From Candidatus Bathyarchaeia archaeon (GTDB lineage Archaea; Thermoproteota; Bathyarchaeia; Bathyarchaeales; Bathycorpusculaceae): a DNA stretch of 50,112 nucleotides. The stretch lies in contig JAVZLS010000011.1 in NCBI GenBank assembly GCA_038883715.1, forward strand, positions 1-50,112, written 5' to 3'. Below, one piece after another: positions 1 to 40,770 of the stretch; positions within the stretch are counted from its first letter, which is position 1; each line of letters begins with the position of its first letter. The position numbers and the translations under genes are program-made. The notes under the pieces were generated by a model. That model did no database searches. It worked only from the letters and a program-made list of their open reading frames with translations, and was not told the DNA's origin.

Positions 1-471
1 AAGAGCCAAGTAGCTTAAATCGCAGTTTTCTTGATTTAGGGCTTTAGCAAAAAGGTAGCAGCATGTAGATCCGGAAAAATCTGTTTCGCCTTTAAAGCCA
101 AAATTTTCTAGGTTTAAATCCAAAACTCTAGGATCTTTGGACACTTTTGGGTCGTGATGGTCTAGTATTATGGTTAGGTTTCGCCCCATGTTATACTTAG
201 ATATTAGATCCGCGTGTGAAGAGCCTATATCTACATAAAAAATTGTTTGCCCAGTCTTCGAATGTATATCTTTAATCACTTCTTCGTAGACTTTCTCCAG
301 ACAGAAAGTTTCCGCCTTTACTCCTTCCCGTTCCAAAGCCTTCCAGGTTATTGTCGCTGAACATAAGCCATCTGCATCATCATGATGGATAATGATAACC
401 TCTTTTGACATTTCCCTCTTTAAGATTGAAATAACATTTGTAACGTAACGGTCAAAATCCTGCAAAGACAT
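1..471 (-). CDS. DHH-family phosphoesterase (RecJ/Cdc45/GAN-like), 3' end runs off window
   Basis: Manual translation from ATG at 471: MSLQDFDRY...IIIHHDDADGLCSA...YVDIGS...ILDHHDP...SGST, i.e. DHH motifs I-IV; not in ORF track. Confidence 0.85.
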   Translation of the reverse strand, partial: MSLQDFDRYVTNVISILKREMSKEVIIIHHDDADGLCSATITWKALEREGVKAETFCLEKVYEEVIKDIHSKTGQTIFYVDIGSSHADLISKYNMGRNLTIILDHHDPKVSKDPRVLDLNLENFGFKGETDFSGSTCCYLFAKALNQENCDLSYLAL

Positions 472-481
472 TTCTAAACCT

Positions 482-1015
482 CTAAGCAATCGTCTTCAAT
501 AGATCTGAACGGGTTATTATTCCAATAACCTTTTTGCCTCTCGCCACCAGAACCCCCTGCCGTCGCTCGAGCGACGGTCGAATGGCACTTATGCTTGTTT
601 CTTCCGAGACTATTGGCAGTGGAGGGTCCATAACGTTCTTGACTTTCTCATCTGCAATGTTTGATCCCAATTTTCTAATTATGCTTTCCTCGGTTATTGT
701 TCCAATAACTTTGCGTCCATTAATAACTGGCATCTGAGAAATTGCATGTCTAACCATTATCTCGCTAACCTTCAATACACTATCTTCAGGTCTCGCAAAA
801 AGTACACCTCTCGTCATCAAATCTCTACACTTTACCTCTCTCCCCTCGGTTAAGACCTTTAAGATCTTGTTAACCGTTGACAGTCTAGGGTCAACCTTTC
901 CTTGTTCGATTTTCGCAATATGTGCCTGTGAAACCCCGACAAGTTCCGCCAGCTTTTTCTGAGTTAACCTGGCTTCTATTCGCAGTTTTCTAAGCATGGA
1001 ACCCGTTATTATCAA
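482..1015 (-). CDS. XRE-type HTH + CBS-pair transcriptional regulator (COG3620-like)
   Basis: LRKLRIEARLTQKKLAELVGVSQAHIAKIEQG HTH, then two CBS repeats (ISQMPVI, GIITRSDLL). Confidence 0.9.
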   Translation of the reverse strand: MIITGSMLRKLRIEARLTQKKLAELVGVSQAHIAKIEQGKVDPRLSTVNKILKVLTEGREVKCRDLMTRGVLFARPEDSVLKVSEIMVRHAISQMPVINGRKVIGTITEESIIRKLGSNIADEKVKNVMDPPLPIVSEETSISAIRPSLERRQGVLVARGKKVIGIITRSDLLKTIA

Positions 1016-1114: not shown

Positions 1115-2323
1115 TTGCGAAACATAATAGTTGAAAGGTTGAGGCAGACTCCCCTTGAGAAGCAAAGACTAGAGATAGTGGAGAGGAAAGGTTTAGGGCA
1201 TCCGGACTACATTTGCGACGCGGTAATGGAGCAAATATCTCTACGCCTTAGCGAAAAATACTTGGAGAAAACTGGCACAATACTCCATCACAATGTAGAT
1301 AAATCCCTTCTTGTGGCCGGACAGGCTGAACTTAGATTTGGAGGGGGAGTTGTAAAACAACCGATGCTTTTCGTTTTCGGCGACAGAGCAACCACAGAAT
1401 TTGACGGCATAAAAATAGATGTGGAAGAAATAGCCGTAAACGTTGCCAAAGAATGGTTCAAGAAAAACATGCGCTTCGTAGACCCAGACAAACACGTAAA
1501 ATACCAGGTGGAACTTAAACCAGGTTCAGCAGGACTTGTAGACATTTTTAAGCGAAAAGGAAAAGTTTTAGGAGCTAACGACACATCCGCCGCTGTTGGC
1601 TATGCGCCAATGACAAGAACAGAGAAGATAGTACTGAAAACAGAGCAATTCCTAAACTCAAAAGAGTTTAAGAAACGCCATCCAGAGTCTGGCGAAGACA
1701 TAAAAGTTATGGGTTCACGGAACAACAATAGCCTAAACTTGACGATATCAATGGCCTTTGTAGACCGCTTCATAAGCAGCGAAGAGGATTACTTCGAGAA
1801 AAAAGCGAAAATCCTCGAGGAAATAAACAAATTCGTTAGAGCAAACACAGATTTTGAAAGGATAAGCGTCCAATTGAACACGTTGGATGTACGCGGCAGA
1901 GGAATCGATGGCGTATACCTAACCGTCTTAGGAACAAGCGCGGACAGCGGAGACTCTGGGCAAGTGGGCAGAGGAAATCGCGTAAACGGTTTAATATCCC
2001 TAAACAGACCCTTCTGTTCAGAAGCCGCTGCCGGTAAAAACCCAGTAAGCCACGTTGGAAAGATATATAACGTTCTCACATTTAGAGTGGCGCAACACGT
2101 CTACGAGCAGGTGCCAGAACTTGAGGAAGTTTACATATGGCTCTTAAGCGAAATTGGACGCCCAATAGATCAGCCAGCAATTGCCGCAGCCCAGGTTGTT
2201 ATGGCAGAAAACAGCTCGCTTGACAAAGTTAAAAGCAAGATAGAGGCTGTGCTGGAATACGAGCTTGAGAACATTGACAAGTTCTGCATGGAGCTAGCCC
2301 AAGGTAAAATTCCAATATGCTGA
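1115..2323 (+). CDS. mat: Archaeal-type S-adenosylmethionine synthetase
   Basis: [57 protein letters not shown]; TTG start with GGAGG SD. Confidence 0.96.
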
Positions 2324-32467: not shown

Positions 32468-33589
32468 CTAAATTGGCGTAAACCTTTCCTTCAACTTCTC
32501 AATGATCTGCGGCAACGTCGTATACTCCATAGACTCGGCACTTAGGCGGGCTGGTTCAAATTCACCCATACGCCGAAGCATGGTGGCATATTTCAATGCC
32601 TCCTTTCTCGCAAGGGCAAATGCTGGGTCAGCGAAAAAGTCTGTTATCATGGGCTTGCCATCATCATCGCTTGCTATTGCACCATCCGCAACTTGAAAGC
32701 CTAAAGCCACCATTCGCGGCGGTCCATCAAAAAGCGTGCACCGAGCATCTTTCAAACCAACAGGCATCAGCGGTCCCCAGTGGCTTCCCCTCATCCAACC
32801 AGCCACCAAATAACTGTGCATGAAGGGCGCTAGAACCTCTCCAACGGCTGGCAAACCGTGCTGTGTTCGAACAATCATCACCGGATCATCTTTTCCAACA
32901 TATTTTCCAGCGATCAGCGAAAGCTTCGTCACACTGCCAGAAGCGCATATTAAATCGTCTCTGCGGCGCCAAACCCGAGAAACTATGTAACGCTCAACAG
33001 TCCCAATTAGGGCGACAAGCTCATACATTTCCTCTGGACATTCAAGCACAACTTTCTTACCCTTTTGGGCATCAACAACCTCAAACTTGAAACCGCCAGC
33101 CATGTTTGGATCTATCACAAGTCCAGCAGTATTCATAGGATCGGCAAAAATCCTGAAAAGAGGCAGATTAAAGCTTCCAGCCGAAGTCTTATCAGCTGCA
33201 AAAACAACTATTGGTTCGGATTTCCGCTCCTCAATCTCCATTTCAGCCACTCCGGGGCCAAGTCCACGGACCGTCCCGCTGAAAGCGTTCTTCAACAAGT
33301 CTTGTCCAGCACCATAAAGCTTCAGTTCCAAGGCTTTGTTGGCAGCCTCCTGGAAAGTGTTCCATGCAAGCCTATGAATTTCAGGACTGGATTCGCCCCG
33401 CTCATGCACCATTAATAGCTCTAAGTCGTCGCCAACGTTGAAAACATAATAACTGTTGATTAGGCCCTCTTCCTTGGCTTTTTTTAGGTTTCTCTCTCCA
33501 ATGTTTAGTAGGGGTTTTGGGACCACATGATGTCCCGCCAGAGAGCCAACATCACATTTTATAAGGGAAATTGTGGTTTTTCTAGACAT
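32468..33589 (-). CDS. fbp: Bifunctional fructose-1,6-bisphosphate aldolase/phosphatase
   Basis: KCDVGS..GH, VGDD, LYGAGQDLL, ADKT, FADPMNTAGL, GKYVGKDDP, GWMRGSH. Confidence 0.96.
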   Translation of the reverse strand: MSRKTTISLIKCDVGSLAGHHVVPKPLLNIGERNLKKAKEEGLINSYYVFNVGDDLELLMVHERGESSPEIHRLAWNTFQEAANKALELKLYGAGQDLLKNAFSGTVRGLGPGVAEMEIEERKSEPIVVFAADKTSAGSFNLPLFRIFADPMNTAGLVIDPNMAGGFKFEVVDAQKGKKVVLECPEEMYELVALIGTVERYIVSRVWRRRDDLICASGSVTKLSLIAGKYVGKDDPVMIVRTQHGLPAVGEVLAPFMHSYLVAGWMRGSHWGPLMPVGLKDARCTLFDGPPRMVALGFQVADGAIASDDDGKPMITDFFADPAFALARKEALKYATMLRRMGEFEPARLSAESMEYTTLPQIIEKLKERFTPI

Positions 33590-35610: not shown

Positions 35611-35973
35611 ATGCTTTTTAGCGAATACCTTCATGAAAAGGCCGAAGAATCAAGACACAACGAAACAATAGGATACCTAATAACCATAATAGGCTCAATA
35701 TTCTTCGTCGGAGGCCTCCTAGAAACCGTCATAACAGTAGAAAACCCAGAATGGTTCCTAATAATACCGTATCATCTGACATCACATCCCTACAGCCTTT
35801 TGGGCTTATCCCTAACACTCGCGGGCTTAGTCCTCCTAATTGTAGGCATAGCCCTAAGCATCCACTACGCAAAGGAAAGAGCATGGTACATGAAACAACT
35901 CCAAAAGGCACACACAGTCGAAGAACTAAAACTAAGGGAGAAAGAAGAAAAGGATAAGAGGAAAGCAAATTAA
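35611..35973 (+). CDS. Hypothetical 2-TM membrane protein
   Basis: Two hydrophobic helices, charged tail. Confidence 0.75.
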   Translation: MLFSEYLHEKAEESRHNETIGYLITIIGSIFFVGGLLETVITVENPEWFLIIPYHLTSHPYSLLGLSLTLAGLVLLIVGIALSIHYAKERAWYMKQLQKAHTVEELKLREKEEKDKRKAN

Positions 35974-36006
35974 TACAGCCACATACTGAATATTATTCGG
36001 CTAAAG

Positions 36007-36084
36007 GCTCCGGTAGTATAGTCCGGTCAAGTATAGCGGCCTCTCGAGCCGCGGACCCGGGTTCAAATCCCGGCCGGAGCACCA
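36007..36084 (+). tRNA. tRNA-Glu(CTC), CCA encoded
   Basis: GCTCCGG/CCGGAGC acceptor; GCGGC-CTCTCGA-GCCGC. Confidence 0.97.
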
Positions 36085-36103
36085 TGCAACATTTTACATA
36101 AAC

Positions 36104-36229
36104 GTCGGTAAATATCCGACATAATTTTGAAATATAATCGGTAAGAATTGCCTAAGTCGACATATAATCCGACAGATTTAAATAACCCTTCGACAGAAAT
36201 ACTTCTCTGGAGAGGCATAGCAAATGTCG
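36104..36229. promoter_or_regulatory. Promoter of HTH-fae-hps with clustered operator-like CGACA/GTCG sites
   Basis: GTCGG-N7-CCGAC (36104-20), GTCG-N10-CGAC (36156-73), CGACA at 36191, TGTCG at 36225; TATA TTTAAATA at 36177-84. Confidence 0.6.
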
Positions 36230-37681
36230 GAAAGGGACTTTAAGAAGCCTGAAACTCGTGAAGAGTTCGTAAGGATTTTGACGGATGCCGCTAGGAAAGA
36301 GGTGGAAGCACGCACTCTTTTGTCGGGTAAGCCTGCAAAGCCGACGGTTTCCGGTACGGCTAAGATTTTAGGGATTCATAGGGATACCCTCTATTCTTGG
36401 CTTAGGGAGTTTAATGTCGATTTCGATGAGGTTGTTGCTGGTATTTCTACGGTTGAGGTGTCGGGTGTTCGACAGCCTCCTAAGGGGTATACTTTTCTAA
36501 TAGGGGAGGCTTTTGTCGGAGAGGGAAATGAGGTTGCTCATATAGATCTTTTGATAGGCGACAAGGATGGGCCTGTTGGGGAGGCTTTTGCAAATGGTTT
36601 GGCTCATCTTTCTATGGGGCACACGCCGCTTTTGGCGGTTATTAGGCCTAATCTTCCGCCTAAACCGCACACTTTGCTGGTGCCTAAAGTGACTGTGAAG
36701 GATCTTGAGGATGCTAACAAGGTTTTTGGTCCTGCTCAGGCGGCGGTTGCTAAGGCTATTGCTGATGCTGTTGAGGAGGGCATAATCCCAAAAGATAAGG
36801 TTGACGACTGGGTTGTGGTTTGCAGCGTCTTTGTCCATCCGAAGGCTAGTGACCACCGTAAAATATATCATTATAATTATAGTGCAACGAAGTTGGCTTT
36901 GAAGAGGGCTATGGCGAGGTATCCTTCGCTGGAGAAGGTTTTCTACGACAAGGATAGGGCTAAGCATCCAATGCTGGGTTACAGGGTGCCACGCCTATGG
37001 AGACCGCCGTACCTGCAGATTTCCCTTGACATACCTGACTTAGAGCGGACTAAGAAGATTATTATGCAGATTCCGAGAAGCGACAGGATAATTTTGGAGG
37101 CTGGTACGCCGCTCATAAAGCGTTACGGCACCAAAGTGATAAGCGAGCTTAGAGAAGTCGCAAGAGACATATTCTTTATGGCAGATTTGAAAACCCTTGA
37201 CGTTGGGAAGGTGGAGGTGGATATAGCCTATGAGGAGACAGCCGACGGCGTTATAGCAGCGGGTTTGGCGCCCACTGAAACCCTAGACGCCTTCATTTAT
37301 GAGGCGAAAAGGCTTGGGATTTATGCGGCTATTGACATGCTTAACGTTGAAGACCCGATAAAGAAGCTTAAAACTCTCAGAGACTTTCCAGATATTGTCA
37401 TTATTCATAGGGGCATAGACGAGGAGACCGGCAGAACCATTGGACTGGAGCTTATCCAAGAGCTTAGGCAAACATTCAAGGACAAGAAGTTCCTTATTGC
37501 TGTGGCCGGTGGGATAATCCCAGAGACCGCGAAAGAAGCGTTGGAGAAGGGCGCCGACATAGTTGTTGTTGGACGCTATGTAACGCAGTCAAGGGATATC
37601 GAAAGGTCTGTCAGGGAGTTCTTAGAGTTAACACCAGAAATGAGAGAAGACATAGATGTCTATAGAGTCCACGTAGAATAG
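36224..37681 (+). CDS. fae-hps: Formaldehyde-activating enzyme / 3-hexulose-6-phosphate synthase fusion with an extra N-terminal HTH
   Basis: Fae: GEAFVGEGNEVAHIDLLIG, GHTPLLAV, FGPAQAAVA; Hps: LQISLD, EAGTPLIK, DLKTLD, HRGID, AGGI, VVGR; N-terminal TVSGTAKILGIHRDTLYSWL. Confidence 0.93.
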   Translation: MSERDFKKPETREEFVRILTDAARKEVEARTLLSGKPAKPTVSGTAKILGIHRDTLYSWLREFNVDFDEVVAGISTVEVSGVRQPPKGYTFLIGEAFVGEGNEVAHIDLLIGDKDGPVGEAFANGLAHLSMGHTPLLAVIRPNLPPKPHTLLVPKVTVKDLEDANKVFGPAQAAVAKAIADAVEEGIIPKDKVDDWVVVCSVFVHPKASDHRKIYHYNYSATKLALKRAMARYPSLEKVFYDKDRAKHPMLGYRVPRLWRPPYLQISLDIPDLERTKKIIMQIPRSDRIILEAGTPLIKRYGTKVISELREVARDIFFMADLKTLDVGKVEVDIAYEETADGVIAAGLAPTETLDAFIYEAKRLGIYAAIDMLNVEDPIKKLKTLRDFPDIVIIHRGIDEETGRTIGLELIQELRQTFKDKKFLIAVAGGIIPETAKEALEKGADIVVVGRYVTQSRDIERSVREFLELTPEMREDIDVYRVHVE

Positions 37682-38887: not shown

Positions 38888-39024
38888 AAACGGTGAACAA
38901 CATTATGGCAAAATTAAAACTTTTGCCTTGGTAAAACTGGAAGCTATATACACAGTCGATGTTTTCACACAATCCTTAATAATTAGAGATTTAACTTCAT
39001 AATCTCCGCTGGAGAGAAACGCCA

Positions 39025-39435
39025 ATGGCTAAATTTAAGGTTATAGTGTCGGATCCCGAGGATGGGACTTCGAAGACTGTAGAGTTGGAAGATGCGCGAG
39101 CGGTTCCGTTAATCGGGAAGAAGATAGGCGACATAATAGACGGTTCAGTTATTGGCTTACCAGGTTTTAAGGTTCAGATTACCGGCGGTTCCGATAAGGA
39201 TGGCTTTCCAATGAGACCTAATGTGCATGGTGGAGTGCGAAGAAGCGTCGTGTTAAGCGGCGGGGTTGGCTTTAACCCGCAGAATGAGGGGGAGCGAAGA
39301 CGAAAAAGGGTCCGTGGAAACATCATCACAGATGAAATTGTTCAGGTGAACATGAAAGTAGTTGAGAAGCCGAAGGGCAAAAAGGGTGGAGAAACAAAGG
39401 AGAAGTCTCCGTTAACTCGGGAAGAGAAAGCCTAA
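39025..39435 (+). CDS. rps6e: 30S ribosomal protein S6e
   Basis: ITGGSDKDGFPM...GERRRKRVRGN. Confidence 0.97.
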   Translation: MAKFKVIVSDPEDGTSKTVELEDARAVPLIGKKIGDIIDGSVIGLPGFKVQITGGSDKDGFPMRPNVHGGVRRSVVLSGGVGFNPQNEGERRRKRVRGNIITDEIVQVNMKVVEKPKGKKGGETKEKSPLTREEKA

Positions 39436-39519
39436 ACGCGGAATGTATTTTGCTTAATATTTATTAACCTGCACGGCAACATCCTTCAATAATCATAGTT
39501 GTAAAGGGAAAATAGAGAA

Positions 39520-40770
39520 ATGAGCGAAGAAAAGACTGTTGCTTTGCCGCGGCAGCCGGAAATAAACATTGGCACGATAGGGCATGTTGACCATGGCAAA
39601 ACAACCTTGGTGCAGGCTTTAACTGGCATCTGGGCTGCTAGACACAGCGAGGAGCTCAAGCGGGGCATAACAATAAAGTTGGGCTATGCGGACATGCCCG
39701 TATACAAGTGCCCAAAATGCGAGCCGCCAAAAAACTATTCAAAAGAGACCTTCTGCCCTCATTGCGGTTCTGAAACAACCTTCATAAGAGCCGTAAGCTT
39801 TGTTGATGCTCCTGGACATGAGGCTTTGATGGCTACGATGCTTTCCGGAGCAGCAATAATGGATGGGGCAATACTTGTTATTGCTGCTGACGAACCTTGC
39901 CCTCAGCCACAAACTAGAGAGCACTTGGCTGCGGCTGAAATTATCGGCATCAAGAATATCATTATAGTGCAAAACAAAATCGACATCGTAACCGAGGAAA
40001 GGGCTCGGAAAAGCTATGAGGAGATTAAAAATTTTGTTAAGGGAACAATCGCCGAAAACGCCCCGATAATTCCAGTTTCAGCCCAACGGAGCGTGAACAT
40101 AGACGCTTTAATCCAAGCCATGGAAGAGTTTATACCAACACCTAAAAGGGATGAGACAAAACAGCCTTTAATGTATGTTGTACGCTCTTTTGATGTGAAT
40201 AAGCCGGGCACTCCGATAGAGAAGCTTAGGGGCGGAGTTATAGGCGGAACAATTTTGCAGGGAAAGTTTGCTATTGATGATGATATAGAGCTTCGCCCGG
40301 GAATAAGCGTTGAGGAAGAGGGCAAAACTGTCTACAAGCCTCTTTTCAGCGAAATCACAAGTTTGCACGCTGGAGGAAGGAACGTTAAGGAAGCCCACTG
40401 TGGCGGTCTGGTTGGCGTCGGAACACTTCTAGACCCTTCGCTTTCTAAGGCTGATGGTTTAACTGGAAATATTGTTGGAAAGGCCGGAATGCTTCCGCAA
40501 GTTCTCACAGAGCTCAATTTGGAAACGTACATTCTTGAAAGAGCTGTGGGGACCAAGGAGCTTGCGAAAGTTGAAAGCATAAGCAAGGATGAAACACTAT
40601 TGCTTCATGTGGGCGCCGCAATAACTGTTGGAAAAGTTGTGGCGGTTAAGGGCGAAATGACCACGCTTAAGCTAACAAGGCCGGTGTGCGCACTTACCGG
40701 TTCGAGGGTTGCCATAAGTAGGAAGATTGCCGGAAGATGGCGATTAATAGGGTATGGAATGATAAAGTGA
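39520..40770 (+). CDS. eif2g: Translation initiation factor 2 gamma subunit
   Basis: GHVDHGKT, RGITIKLGY, Zn knuckle, DAPGHE, NKID, RWRLIGYG. Confidence 0.97.
   Translation: MSEEKTVALPRQPEINIGTIGHVDHGKTTLVQALTGIWAARHSEELKRGITIKLGYADMPVYKCPKCEPPKNYSKETFCPHCGSETTFIRAVSFVDAPGHEALMATMLSGAAIMDGAILVIAADEPCPQPQTREHLAAAEIIGIKNIIIVQNKIDIVTEERARKSYEEIKNFVKGTIAENAPIIPVSAQRSVNIDALIQAMEEFIPTPKRDETKQPLMYVVRSFDVNKPGTPIEKLRGGVIGGTILQGKFAIDDDIELRPGISVEEEGKTVYKPLFSEITSLHAGGRNVKEAHCGGLVGVGTLLDPSLSKADGLTGNIVGKAGMLPQVLTELNLETYILERAVGTKELAKVESISKDETLLLHVGAAITVGKVVAVKGEMTTLKLTRPVCALTGSRVAISRKIAGRWRLIGYGMIK

Follow-up and report, generated by a model that had tools for sequence, protein, structure and literature searches.

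A conserved helix-turn-helix domain on Fae-Hps and a CGACA array at its gene point to a possible enzyme-regulator fusion in Bathyarchaeia

The gene for a bifunctional formaldehyde-activating enzyme and 3-hexulose-6-phosphate synthase (Fae-Hps) was analyzed in a 50,112-nt stretch of DNA (the window; contig JAVZLS010000011.1, positions 1 to 50,112) from assembly GCA_038883715.1 of a Candidatus Bathyarchaeia archaeon. The open reading frame (ORF) at 36224..37681 (+) encodes a 485-aa protein in which a predicted helix-turn-helix (HTH) domain precedes the two enzyme domains, and copies of the word CGACA are arrayed over its promoter, its start codon and the 5' part of its coding sequence. For comparison, GTDB species genomes were scanned and the best 80 of 478 relatives were kept. 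All 80 retained loci are HTH-bearing, and the promoter and motif counts given below cover 80 or 81 genes. The record titles of these loci name Bathyarchaeia, Bathyarchaeota or Bathyarchaeales in 79 cases and an 'uncultured archaeon' in one. A protein sample was obtained by searching 5.8 billion protein clusters, which gave 6006 relatives among 8000 scored candidates; public annotation labels these relatives plainly as 'bifunctional Fae/Hps'. The protein was divided into the following parts.

36224..36424 (+): N-terminal domain, residues 1-67, with a long helix (12-34) followed by a helix-turn-helix (42-49 and 53-63)
36425..36493 (+): variable flexible linker, residues 68-90, with amino acid identity 0.30, a predicted local distance difference test score (pLDDT) below 50 for residues 76-88, and motif copies at 36459 (TGTCGG) and 36470 (CGACA)
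36500..36973 (+): Fae domain (formaldehyde-activating enzyme), residues 93-250, PF08714, E 3.8e-72
37007..37618 (+): Hps domain (3-hexulose-6-phosphate synthase, orotidine 5'-monophosphate (OMP)-decarboxylase fold), residues 262-465, PF00215, E 8.7e-31

The enzyme body is predicted to be an ordinary Fae-Hps with both domains intact, as the initial annotation had stated, and the Pfam, NCBIfam and PDB matches agree on this point. The Fae part scored 241.9 bits with PF08714 (cut-off 27) and 260 bits with TIGR03126 (cut-off 118), and it matched the Methylobacterium extorquens enzyme in the PDB (1Y5Y) at E 3.4e-46. The Hps part scored 108 bits with PF00215 (cut-off 27) and matched PDB entries 9LJ9, 3F4W and 3AJX at E 1.6e-29 to 5.7e-17; with the stand-alone Hps model TIGR03128 it reached only 120 bits, below the cut-off of 200. 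Residues D321, K323 and D326 were invariant in 41 sequences and form the D-x-K-x-x-D motif expected of an Hps domain of the OMP-decarboxylase suprafamily. The NCBIfam equivalog model for Fae/Hps, NF009833, gave 574 bits (cut-off 274), and its positions 2-390 of 392 were aligned with residues 91-484, so that about 90 N-terminal residues lie outside the known family. The protein thus resembles methanogen Fae-Hps, for example Mhun1628 of Methanospirillum hungatei (PMC5241800), in having the same two catalytic domains in the same order, and differs from the 392-position family profile in that residues 1-90 have no counterpart there.

The extension was examined in the relatives. The initial annotation had claimed about 85 extra residues with an HTH in frame with Fae-Hps; the extension measures about 90 residues and is conserved across the relatives. 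The best 120 protein-cluster matches were 468-527 aa long and covered 96-100% of the query at 76-94% identity, with the extension included. Residues 1-485 were matched in 79 of the 80 species loci and residues 7-485 in the remaining one, and a single ORF holds both HTH and enzyme in 81/81 genes. Among the 58 genes that have exactly 485 codons, residues 2-67 showed a mean pairwise amino acid identity of 0.69 and the linker (68-90) one of 0.30, with Fae at 0.87 and Hps at 0.84. The HTH originally singled out, TVSGTAKILGIHRDTLYSWLREF, corresponds to residues 41-63, and the invariant or nearly invariant positions of the domain read KPT(I/V)SGTAK.L.IHRDTLY.WL.EF.VDF, with no Cys among them. In the predicted recognition helix, HRDTL(Y)xW, residues H52, R53, D54, T55, L56 and W59 were invariant and Y57 was kept in at least 90% of sequences. 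AlphaFold2 modelled a four-helix module (helices 12-34, 42-49, 53-63 and 67-79, the last being 67-71 in the full-length model) with pLDDT 82-90 over residues 11-70, except for a value of 70 over residues 31-40. A translation start downstream of the HTH was also considered. The sole in-frame candidate near the Fae boundary is a GTG at 36458 (Val79), which lies inside the unconserved linker; since the linker is unconserved and residues 2-67 are conserved, this start was rejected and translation of the N-terminal domain stands. Judged from these sequence comparisons, the N-terminal HTH domain is a genuine, translated and conserved part of the enzyme, and in the relatives, too, a conserved HTH is attached by a flexible linker to an intact Fae-Hps.

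The following features were located in the 140 nt upstream of the gene and at its start, including a copy at the position of the transcription factor B recognition element (BRE).

36104..36108 (+): GTCGG, imperfect inverted partner of the distal site (GTCGG-N7-CCGAC); local, not recurrent in relatives (by eye)
36116..36121 (+): distal CCGACA; the proximal site follows 53 nt downstream
36157..36162 (+): TCGACA within GTCGAC, in close relatives only (L003, L008; by eye)
36169..36174 (+): proximal CCGACA, at the BRE position, two bases upstream of the TATA box
36177..36184 (+): TATA box TTTAAATA; (T/C)TTAWATA at 1.0-2.0 bits per position in 80 motif-aligned sequences
36190..36195 (+): TCGACA between the TATA box and the predicted transcription start; a site in -35..-20 occurs in only 8/81
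36209..36215 (+): Shine-Dalgarno-like GGAGAGG, 8 nt ahead of the ATG; relatives have a weakly conserved GG there
36225..36230 (+): TGTCGG, the inverted CCGACA, over the start codon, Ser2 and the first base of codon 3

The copies of CGACA that had been read at 36117, 36158, 36170 and 36191, and the inverted TGTCG at 36225, were all found at those positions. The second inverted copy, placed at 36104, was not: GTCGG is the complement of CCGAC and not of CGACA. The 50,112 nt of the window contain 67 CGACA/TGTCG, which corresponds to 0.19 per 140 nt, and the cluster holds 5. Among canonical (reverse-complement-merged) 5-mers, CGACA formed the most extreme local cluster by a narrow distance (Poisson 1.6e-6, compared with 3.6e-6 for the runner-up). 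Clustering within the window alone is not decisive, and the relatives settle the question. In all 81 genes CGACA was found two bases before (T/C)TTAWATA and 47-57 nt ahead of the start codon, and the sequence flanking this proximal CGACA carried 0-0.3 bits per position. CCGACA was the top 6-mer of the 200 nt upstream, present in 80/80 genes against 3.6 expected and a shuffle maximum of 40. A further CGACA lay 51-55 nt upstream of the proximal copy in 43/81 genes; at least one site was present in -125..-90 in 63/81, and at least one extra copy within 120 nt in 77/81. At the start codon (+1), TGTCG was found in 76/81 genes. Codon 2 encoded Ser in 77/81, and 76 of these 77 codons were TCG, compared with 16% TCG among the other 1303 Ser codons of the same genes. 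The neighbouring gene for eIF2-gamma also starts Met-Ser and uses AGC or AGT, so TCG is not a general second-codon habit. Distances between pairs of sites peaked at 51-56 and 105-107 nt, which places the distal, proximal and start-codon sites about 52 bp (about five helical turns) apart. In essentially all sampled HTH-bearing orthologues, CGACA recurs as a conserved cis-element that flanks the TATA box and overlaps the start codon. The copies at 36158 and 36191, the repeat ATATAATC at 36132 and 36162 and the two local palindromes (GTCGG-N7-CCGAC at 36104-36120 and GTCG-N10-CGAC at 36156-36173) are present as originally described, but they are shared with the closest relatives only (for all but 36191, as judged by eye), and because they are not conserved they are probably outside the mechanism.

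Six more copies, beyond those of the initial annotation, were found inside the gene at 36321, 36415, 36459, 36470, 36514 and 36559. Two of them lie in the linker and are given with it above; the other four are as follows.

36321..36326 (+): TGTCGG at +97, over Leu33-Ser34-Gly35; at least one site in +90..+125 in 65/81
36415..36419 (+): TGTCG at +191, over Asn64-Val65-Asp66; in 63/81
36514..36519 (+): TGTCGG at +290, over Phe97-Val98-Gly99; in 26/81
36559..36563 (+): CGACA at +335, over Gly112-Asp113-Lys114; in 28/81

Site density was 10-30 times background as far as about +380, and the genes had a median of 9 sites in -200..+400, compared with about 0.8 expected from the background rate. At least one site was present in +90..125 in 65, in +185..200 in 63, in +215..255 in 72 and in +325..356 in 57 of the 81 genes, while the gap zones +40..85 and +130..180 had a site in only 9 and 1. 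The exact position of the site near +100 differs by clade (+97/+117 or +108), which looks like turnover under selection for presence. The expected number of sites was determined by synonymous-codon shuffles that preserved each protein and its codon usage. The data showed 229 sites where 50.1 were expected in nt 1-210, 223 where 41.9 were expected in nt 210-380, and 229 where 163.1 were expected in the rest of the gene. Over nt 1-380, CGACA ranked first among canonical 5-mers (455 observed, 91.6 expected, ratio 5.0); the next-ranked words, CCGAC and TCCGA, overlap it, and the best unrelated word reached 2.6. As a baseline for shared ancestry, ratios did not exceed 2.4 in the rest of the gene or 2.6 in nt 1-380 of eIF2-gamma (59 sequences).

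Codon choice within the motif was also analyzed in the 58 genes of 485 codons. Ser was encoded by TCG in 56/57 cases at codon 2, 22/22 at codon 34 and 36/36 at codon 80, that is, in 114 of 115 in-motif Ser codons. Val65 was encoded by GTC in 53/58, compared with 18% gene-wide. At 79-81 the otherwise unconstrained linker has the peptide Leu/Val-Ser-Glu/Gly, whose codons read NTG-TCG-G and repeat the word found at the start codon. Conservation at four-fold degenerate sites was 0.47-0.52 in the 5' part and 0.36-0.40 in the enzyme part. The array thus continues for about 350 nt past the start codon, with synonymous sites under constraint. A recurrent word further downstream, at +857 (GCGACAGRATAAT / GCGACAGGATAAT; 37081-37093 (+), with CGACA in 38/81), was considered as an operator and rejected: it encodes the conserved Hps peptide SDRII, whose amino acid conservation explains the recurrence, so it is probably not an operator site.

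Control promoters bear on whether there is a special element at all. CGACA was absent upstream of all 21 other TTTAWATA boxes. The syntenic S6e, eIF2-gamma and major facilitator superfamily (MFS) transporter promoters were also strongly conserved, each with its own words and with other words at the BRE position. Because CGACA is absent there in these three promoters and at the 21 other boxes, the proximal copy is not a generic BRE. What is distinctive at fae-hps is repetition, phasing and codon-level constraint. One could still suppose that the proximal copy is the BRE of a strong promoter and that the rest follows from amino acid and codon bias together with shared ancestry; its BRE-like position and likeness to CGAAA, the general conservation of promoters in these genomes and the only marginally extreme clustering within the window would agree with this. 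We consider such an account scarcely credible, given the 5-fold excess over synonymous shuffles when internal and external controls reach at most 2.6, the almost exclusive use of TCG for in-motif Ser, a distal copy at a fixed 51-55 nt in 43/81 genes amid otherwise unconserved sequence, and control promoters without CGACA.

The same intragenic copies could in principle act in RNA, where pairing of UGUCGG with CCGACA, or protein binding, would control translation or mRNA stability. TGTCG and CGACA are complementary, both occur on the sense strand within the first 380 nt, and one copy covers the start codon. However, RNAalifold returned 0 consensus pairs for -20..+140 in 41 of the 81 sequences, and a permissive Rfam scan of 35900-36700 gave only the tRNA. 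Transcription presumably does not include the best-conserved copies, which are located upstream of the TATA box, and motif orientation switches around the promoter, which suits double-stranded recognition. Action at the RNA level is therefore very unlikely.

The kind of HTH in the N-terminal domain was investigated by profile comparison. Pfam gave only sub-threshold matches for the quoted HTH (HTH_28, 19.5 bits, cut-off 25). A profile of the domain built from 80 sequences was searched against 1.84 billion (1.84e9) representative proteins and gave only 74 matches at E<=1e-3; the 17 short matches inspected were mostly pieces of the same fusion, more divergent versions among them. Genuine phage terminase small subunits were also among the matches (P0159, P0163 and P0167; E 3.8e-6 to 3.3e-5); these score 62-77 bits with GP3_package (cut-off 29.4) and also match phrog_606/309. 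The sole PHROG match of the window's own N-terminal domain was phrog_606 (terminase small subunit), at 1.4e-3. GP3_package (PF16677) gave 21.8 bits on the window protein, below its cut-off, and matched 69/80 relatives at E<=0.01, every one below the cut-off. When the domain was aligned by hhalign with nine terminase-like matches, the probability was 99.2 over 43 columns, a value that is partly circular because the comparison set was picked from search matches. A PDB sequence-profile search gave only weak matches (2AO9 at 0.081 and a Fis-type response regulator at 0.34), and a feature search of the ESM Atlas gave no usable match for the domain.

We conclude that the head is, as far as profile comparison can tell, a simple HTH with kinship to the module by which terminase small subunits bind DNA. 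Those subunits carry an N-terminal HTH on an oligomeric core and bind arrayed sites. With those proteins (PF16677, phrog_606/309; PDB 2AO9, 9 chains in one entry) the head shares the HTH core PTI.G.A..L.[IV]HRDTLY.W..E...F. Unlike in them, only profile positions 31-71 of 105 align, and the oligomerisation segment is replaced by the linker and Fae-Hps; because the oligomerisation part is missing, the head is not a terminase. Two side observations concern proteins with similar domains that were among the matches of the domain profile. P0139, P0141, P0148, P0149, P0154, P0162 and P0166 consist of 4-7 tandem units of a similar small HTH, as in KLTVAEIAKKLGI..TLY.YLR.RNVP, with seven repeats. In P0129 (153 aa), the N-terminal HTH domain of the fusion is joined not to Fae but to another C-terminal sequence without a Pfam match, which may represent a second fusion partner or result from a chimeric gene call.

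Other possible targets of the head were sought by scanning for the motif. The 50-kb window contains no comparable CGACA cluster elsewhere, and 439 kb of flanking DNA outside the locus held 14 clusters of at least 3 sites, where about 10 are expected by chance by our own estimate. A relaxed scan for CGACA with AT-rich sequence yielded nothing convincing. Clusters beyond chance were thus found neither elsewhere in the window nor in the flanking 439 kb. A conserved, selected YCGACA array is present at fae-hps and nowhere else within the sampled DNA.

These results bear on whether the array is a real operator bound by a separate trans-acting regulator, with the fused HTH having another target or role, such as other promoters or partner recruitment. 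The link between HTH and motif is limited to co-occurrence, and the window does encode stand-alone HTH_3-CBS, ArsR, Lrp/AsnC and DUF4443/CggR_N-like proteins. We regard a separate regulator as unlikely, although it deserves serious consideration, because the motif cluster was seen only at the HTH-bearing gene in the approximately 440 kb sampled, because recognition helix and motif are near-invariant over the same set of species, and because enzyme-regulator fusions usually autoregulate, as RbkR is reported to do (PMC5397151). Within the protein itself, no HxlR or FrmR (DUF156) family match was found at E<=1 for the window protein in Pfam, nor among the 80 relatives. Dedicated DNA-binding modules do control hexulose-phosphate synthase or formaldehyde-handling genes in other systems, namely HxlR, which acts on hxlAB in Bacillus subtilis, and FrmR. 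Both are stand-alone regulators from other families and detect formaldehyde by cysteine chemistry; the N-terminal domain described here differs from them in having neither an invariant Cys nor a match to either family.

Enzymes that carry their own DNA-binding domain are a known kind. The bacterial 'trigger enzymes' PutA, BirA and NadR have an N-terminal DNA-binding domain on an enzyme body and autoregulate via their own promoter region. PutA is a ribbon-helix-helix protein that recognizes several copies of a 6-bp word, and BirA has a winged HTH. All three differ from the present protein in DNA-binding fold and pathway, and in being bacterial; we know of no intragenic site array kept by codon choice for any of them. 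An archaeal precedent is the riboflavin kinase/regulator RbkR, in which an enzyme is fused to an HTH and which is reported to bind the promoter of its own gene (Rodionova et al., 2017, PMC5397151). In that report, DNA binding and ligand effects (CTP, FMN) were demonstrated for RbkR and its DNA complex was solved. The two proteins are alike in being archaeal, in combining an enzyme and an HTH-type domain in one polypeptide, and in the prediction, by comparative genomics, of operators that include one at their own gene. They differ in that RbkR joins a winged HTH to a kinase and its operators vary by lineage, whereas the present protein joins a terminase-type HTH to Fae-Hps and has an invariant motif arrayed into the coding sequence. 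In the full-text literature outside subscription journals, we found no published description of an HTH-bearing Fae-Hps or of the CGACA motif, in agreement with the initial annotation, which knew of none.

Taken together, these data suggest that HTH-Fae-Hps is an enzyme-regulator fusion that controls its own gene via its own HTH, a reading to which we give a probability slightly above one half (about 0.55), and a bifunctional enzyme and regulator of this kind is proposed to be typical of the sampled Bathyarchaeia. We infer that the HTH would bind the YCGACA sites, and would engage several of them, because of its kinship with terminase small subunits and because of precedents for enzyme-regulator fusions such as archaeal RbkR. 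The Fae-Hps body would interconvert ribulose-5-phosphate plus formaldehyde with hexulose-6-phosphate and pass formaldehyde to tetrahydromethanopterin (H4MPT). The linker of about 20 residues would tether the HTH head to this body, and an enzyme oligomer would present several heads at once to an array of YCGACA half-sites. Fae is a pentamer, and Fae crystals contain five chains per entry (10 chains in 2 entries). Three of the sites would be engaged about 52 bp apart, namely the distal one, the one abutting the TATA box at the BRE position and the inverted one over the start codon, with more within the first 350 nt of coding sequence. From the TATA box at 36177-84 and the usual archaeal spacing, the transcription start was estimated to lie near 36205-36210, and the best-conserved sites, at about -35 and +15 to +20, would then bracket the pre-initiation complex, a geometry that suggests repression. 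Occupied BRE-adjacent and start-codon sites would exclude TFB and RNA polymerase, excess free protein would repress its own gene, and substrate or product (formaldehyde, sugar phosphate or H4MPT) may alter binding.

The HTH might also bind the array for a purpose other than transcription, with the DNA serving as a scaffold that assembles or sequesters the oligomer, or with DNA binding gating catalysis. The HTH is kin to terminase small subunits, which bind site arrays as rings, and the median of 9 sites over 600 bp falls mostly in coding sequence and not in the promoter. Set against this, the two best-conserved sites bracket the core promoter (BRE position, 81/81; start codon, 76/81), which is the classic geometry of archaeal repression, and one genomic locus has room for only one or few oligomers. 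On balance, a scaffold or gating role appears distinctly improbable.

Several observations weigh against autoregulation by the fused HTH. All HTH family matches of the head fall below curated cut-offs, and a Foldseek comparison of the N-terminal domain model with the PDB and BFVD gave nothing at E<=0.001, with generic HTH proteins on top. The tie between HTH and motif is one of co-occurrence in 81/81 genes, every sampled locus being HTH-bearing, and no further candidate target genes were found in the approximately 440 kb of sampled DNA. Promoter conservation alone is not special, because the S6e, eIF2-gamma and MFS promoters are conserved too. The proximal copy stands at the exact BRE position and resembles the purine-rich CGAAA/CGGAAA found before other TATA boxes of the window, so that part of its conservation may reflect core-promoter function. 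Finally, the spacing of the intragenic sites is irregular. A more elaborate form of the proposed autoregulation would have a central carbon enzyme capture a phage terminase-type head, and a pentamer-based oligomer wrap its own promoter and 5' coding sequence over about 450-500 bp via at least 9 phased CCGACA half-sites; pentose and formaldehyde flux would thereby be coupled to the enzyme's own transcription, and the operator would dictate codons (Ser always TCG) and fix the linker residues Leu/Val-Ser-Glu. This fuller picture is possible but doubtful.

The neighbourhood of the gene was also examined. A tRNA-Glu(CUC) gene lies at 36007-36084 (+), with its 3' end 139 nt before the fae-hps ATG. 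By eye, the closest relatives (for example L001, L003, L004, L007 and L008) likewise have this tRNA 3' end ahead of fae-hps, and more distant relatives do not. The downstream neighbour is the MFS transporter gene, and because it is convergent fae-hps looks monocistronic. The remaining window is archaeal housekeeping DNA (ribosomal proteins, TFB, eIF2-gamma, S-adenosylmethionine (SAM) synthetase and fructose-1,6-bisphosphate aldolase/phosphatase), with no phage context in the 50 kb. The fructose-1,6-bisphosphate aldolase/phosphatase gene (FBPase_3; 32468-33589 (-)) lies 2.6 kb upstream of fae-hps and its promoter is without a CGACA array. FBPase_3 yields fructose-6-phosphate, the entry point of the reverse ribulose monophosphate route. 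An HTH_3-CBS regulator gene at 482-1015 (-) is divergent from that for SAM synthetase at 1115-2323 (+), and the short intergenic region they share has ATATATA at its centre. The regions upstream of eIF2-gamma (39400-39520 (+)) and of the MFS gene (38888-38990 (-)) are conserved across about 36-66 Bathyarchaeia species, with the specific words GCTTAAYGTTTATTAAC; GCAAAAGTTTTAAT. In the S6e leader (about 38986-39006 (+); gene at 39025), an inverted repeat, GAGATT-N9-AATCTC, lies in a block conserved in about 69-71/75 orthologous promoters, and it may be a leader hairpin or an operator of the ribosomal-protein gene. Promoter sequence seems to be unusually well preserved in Bathyarchaeia.

Bathyarchaeia are among the most abundant archaea of sediments and are largely uncultured. 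With a defined 6-bp operator and a self-contained sensor-enzyme, the hypothesis would be approachable without culturing, by means of recombinant protein and about 450 bp of DNA. The locus would offer a clean case of operator sites that constrain synonymous codons and linker sequence within a gene, and, if a ligand response were found, the module could be used as a small part that responds to formaldehyde or sugar phosphate. In archaea without the oxidative pentose-phosphate route, Fae-Hps is the source of pentoses and also removes formaldehyde. The fusion proposed here would add a one-carbon and sugar-phosphate case to the few archaeal enzyme-regulator fusions, and would represent the reuse of a phage-type HTH by a housekeeping enzyme.

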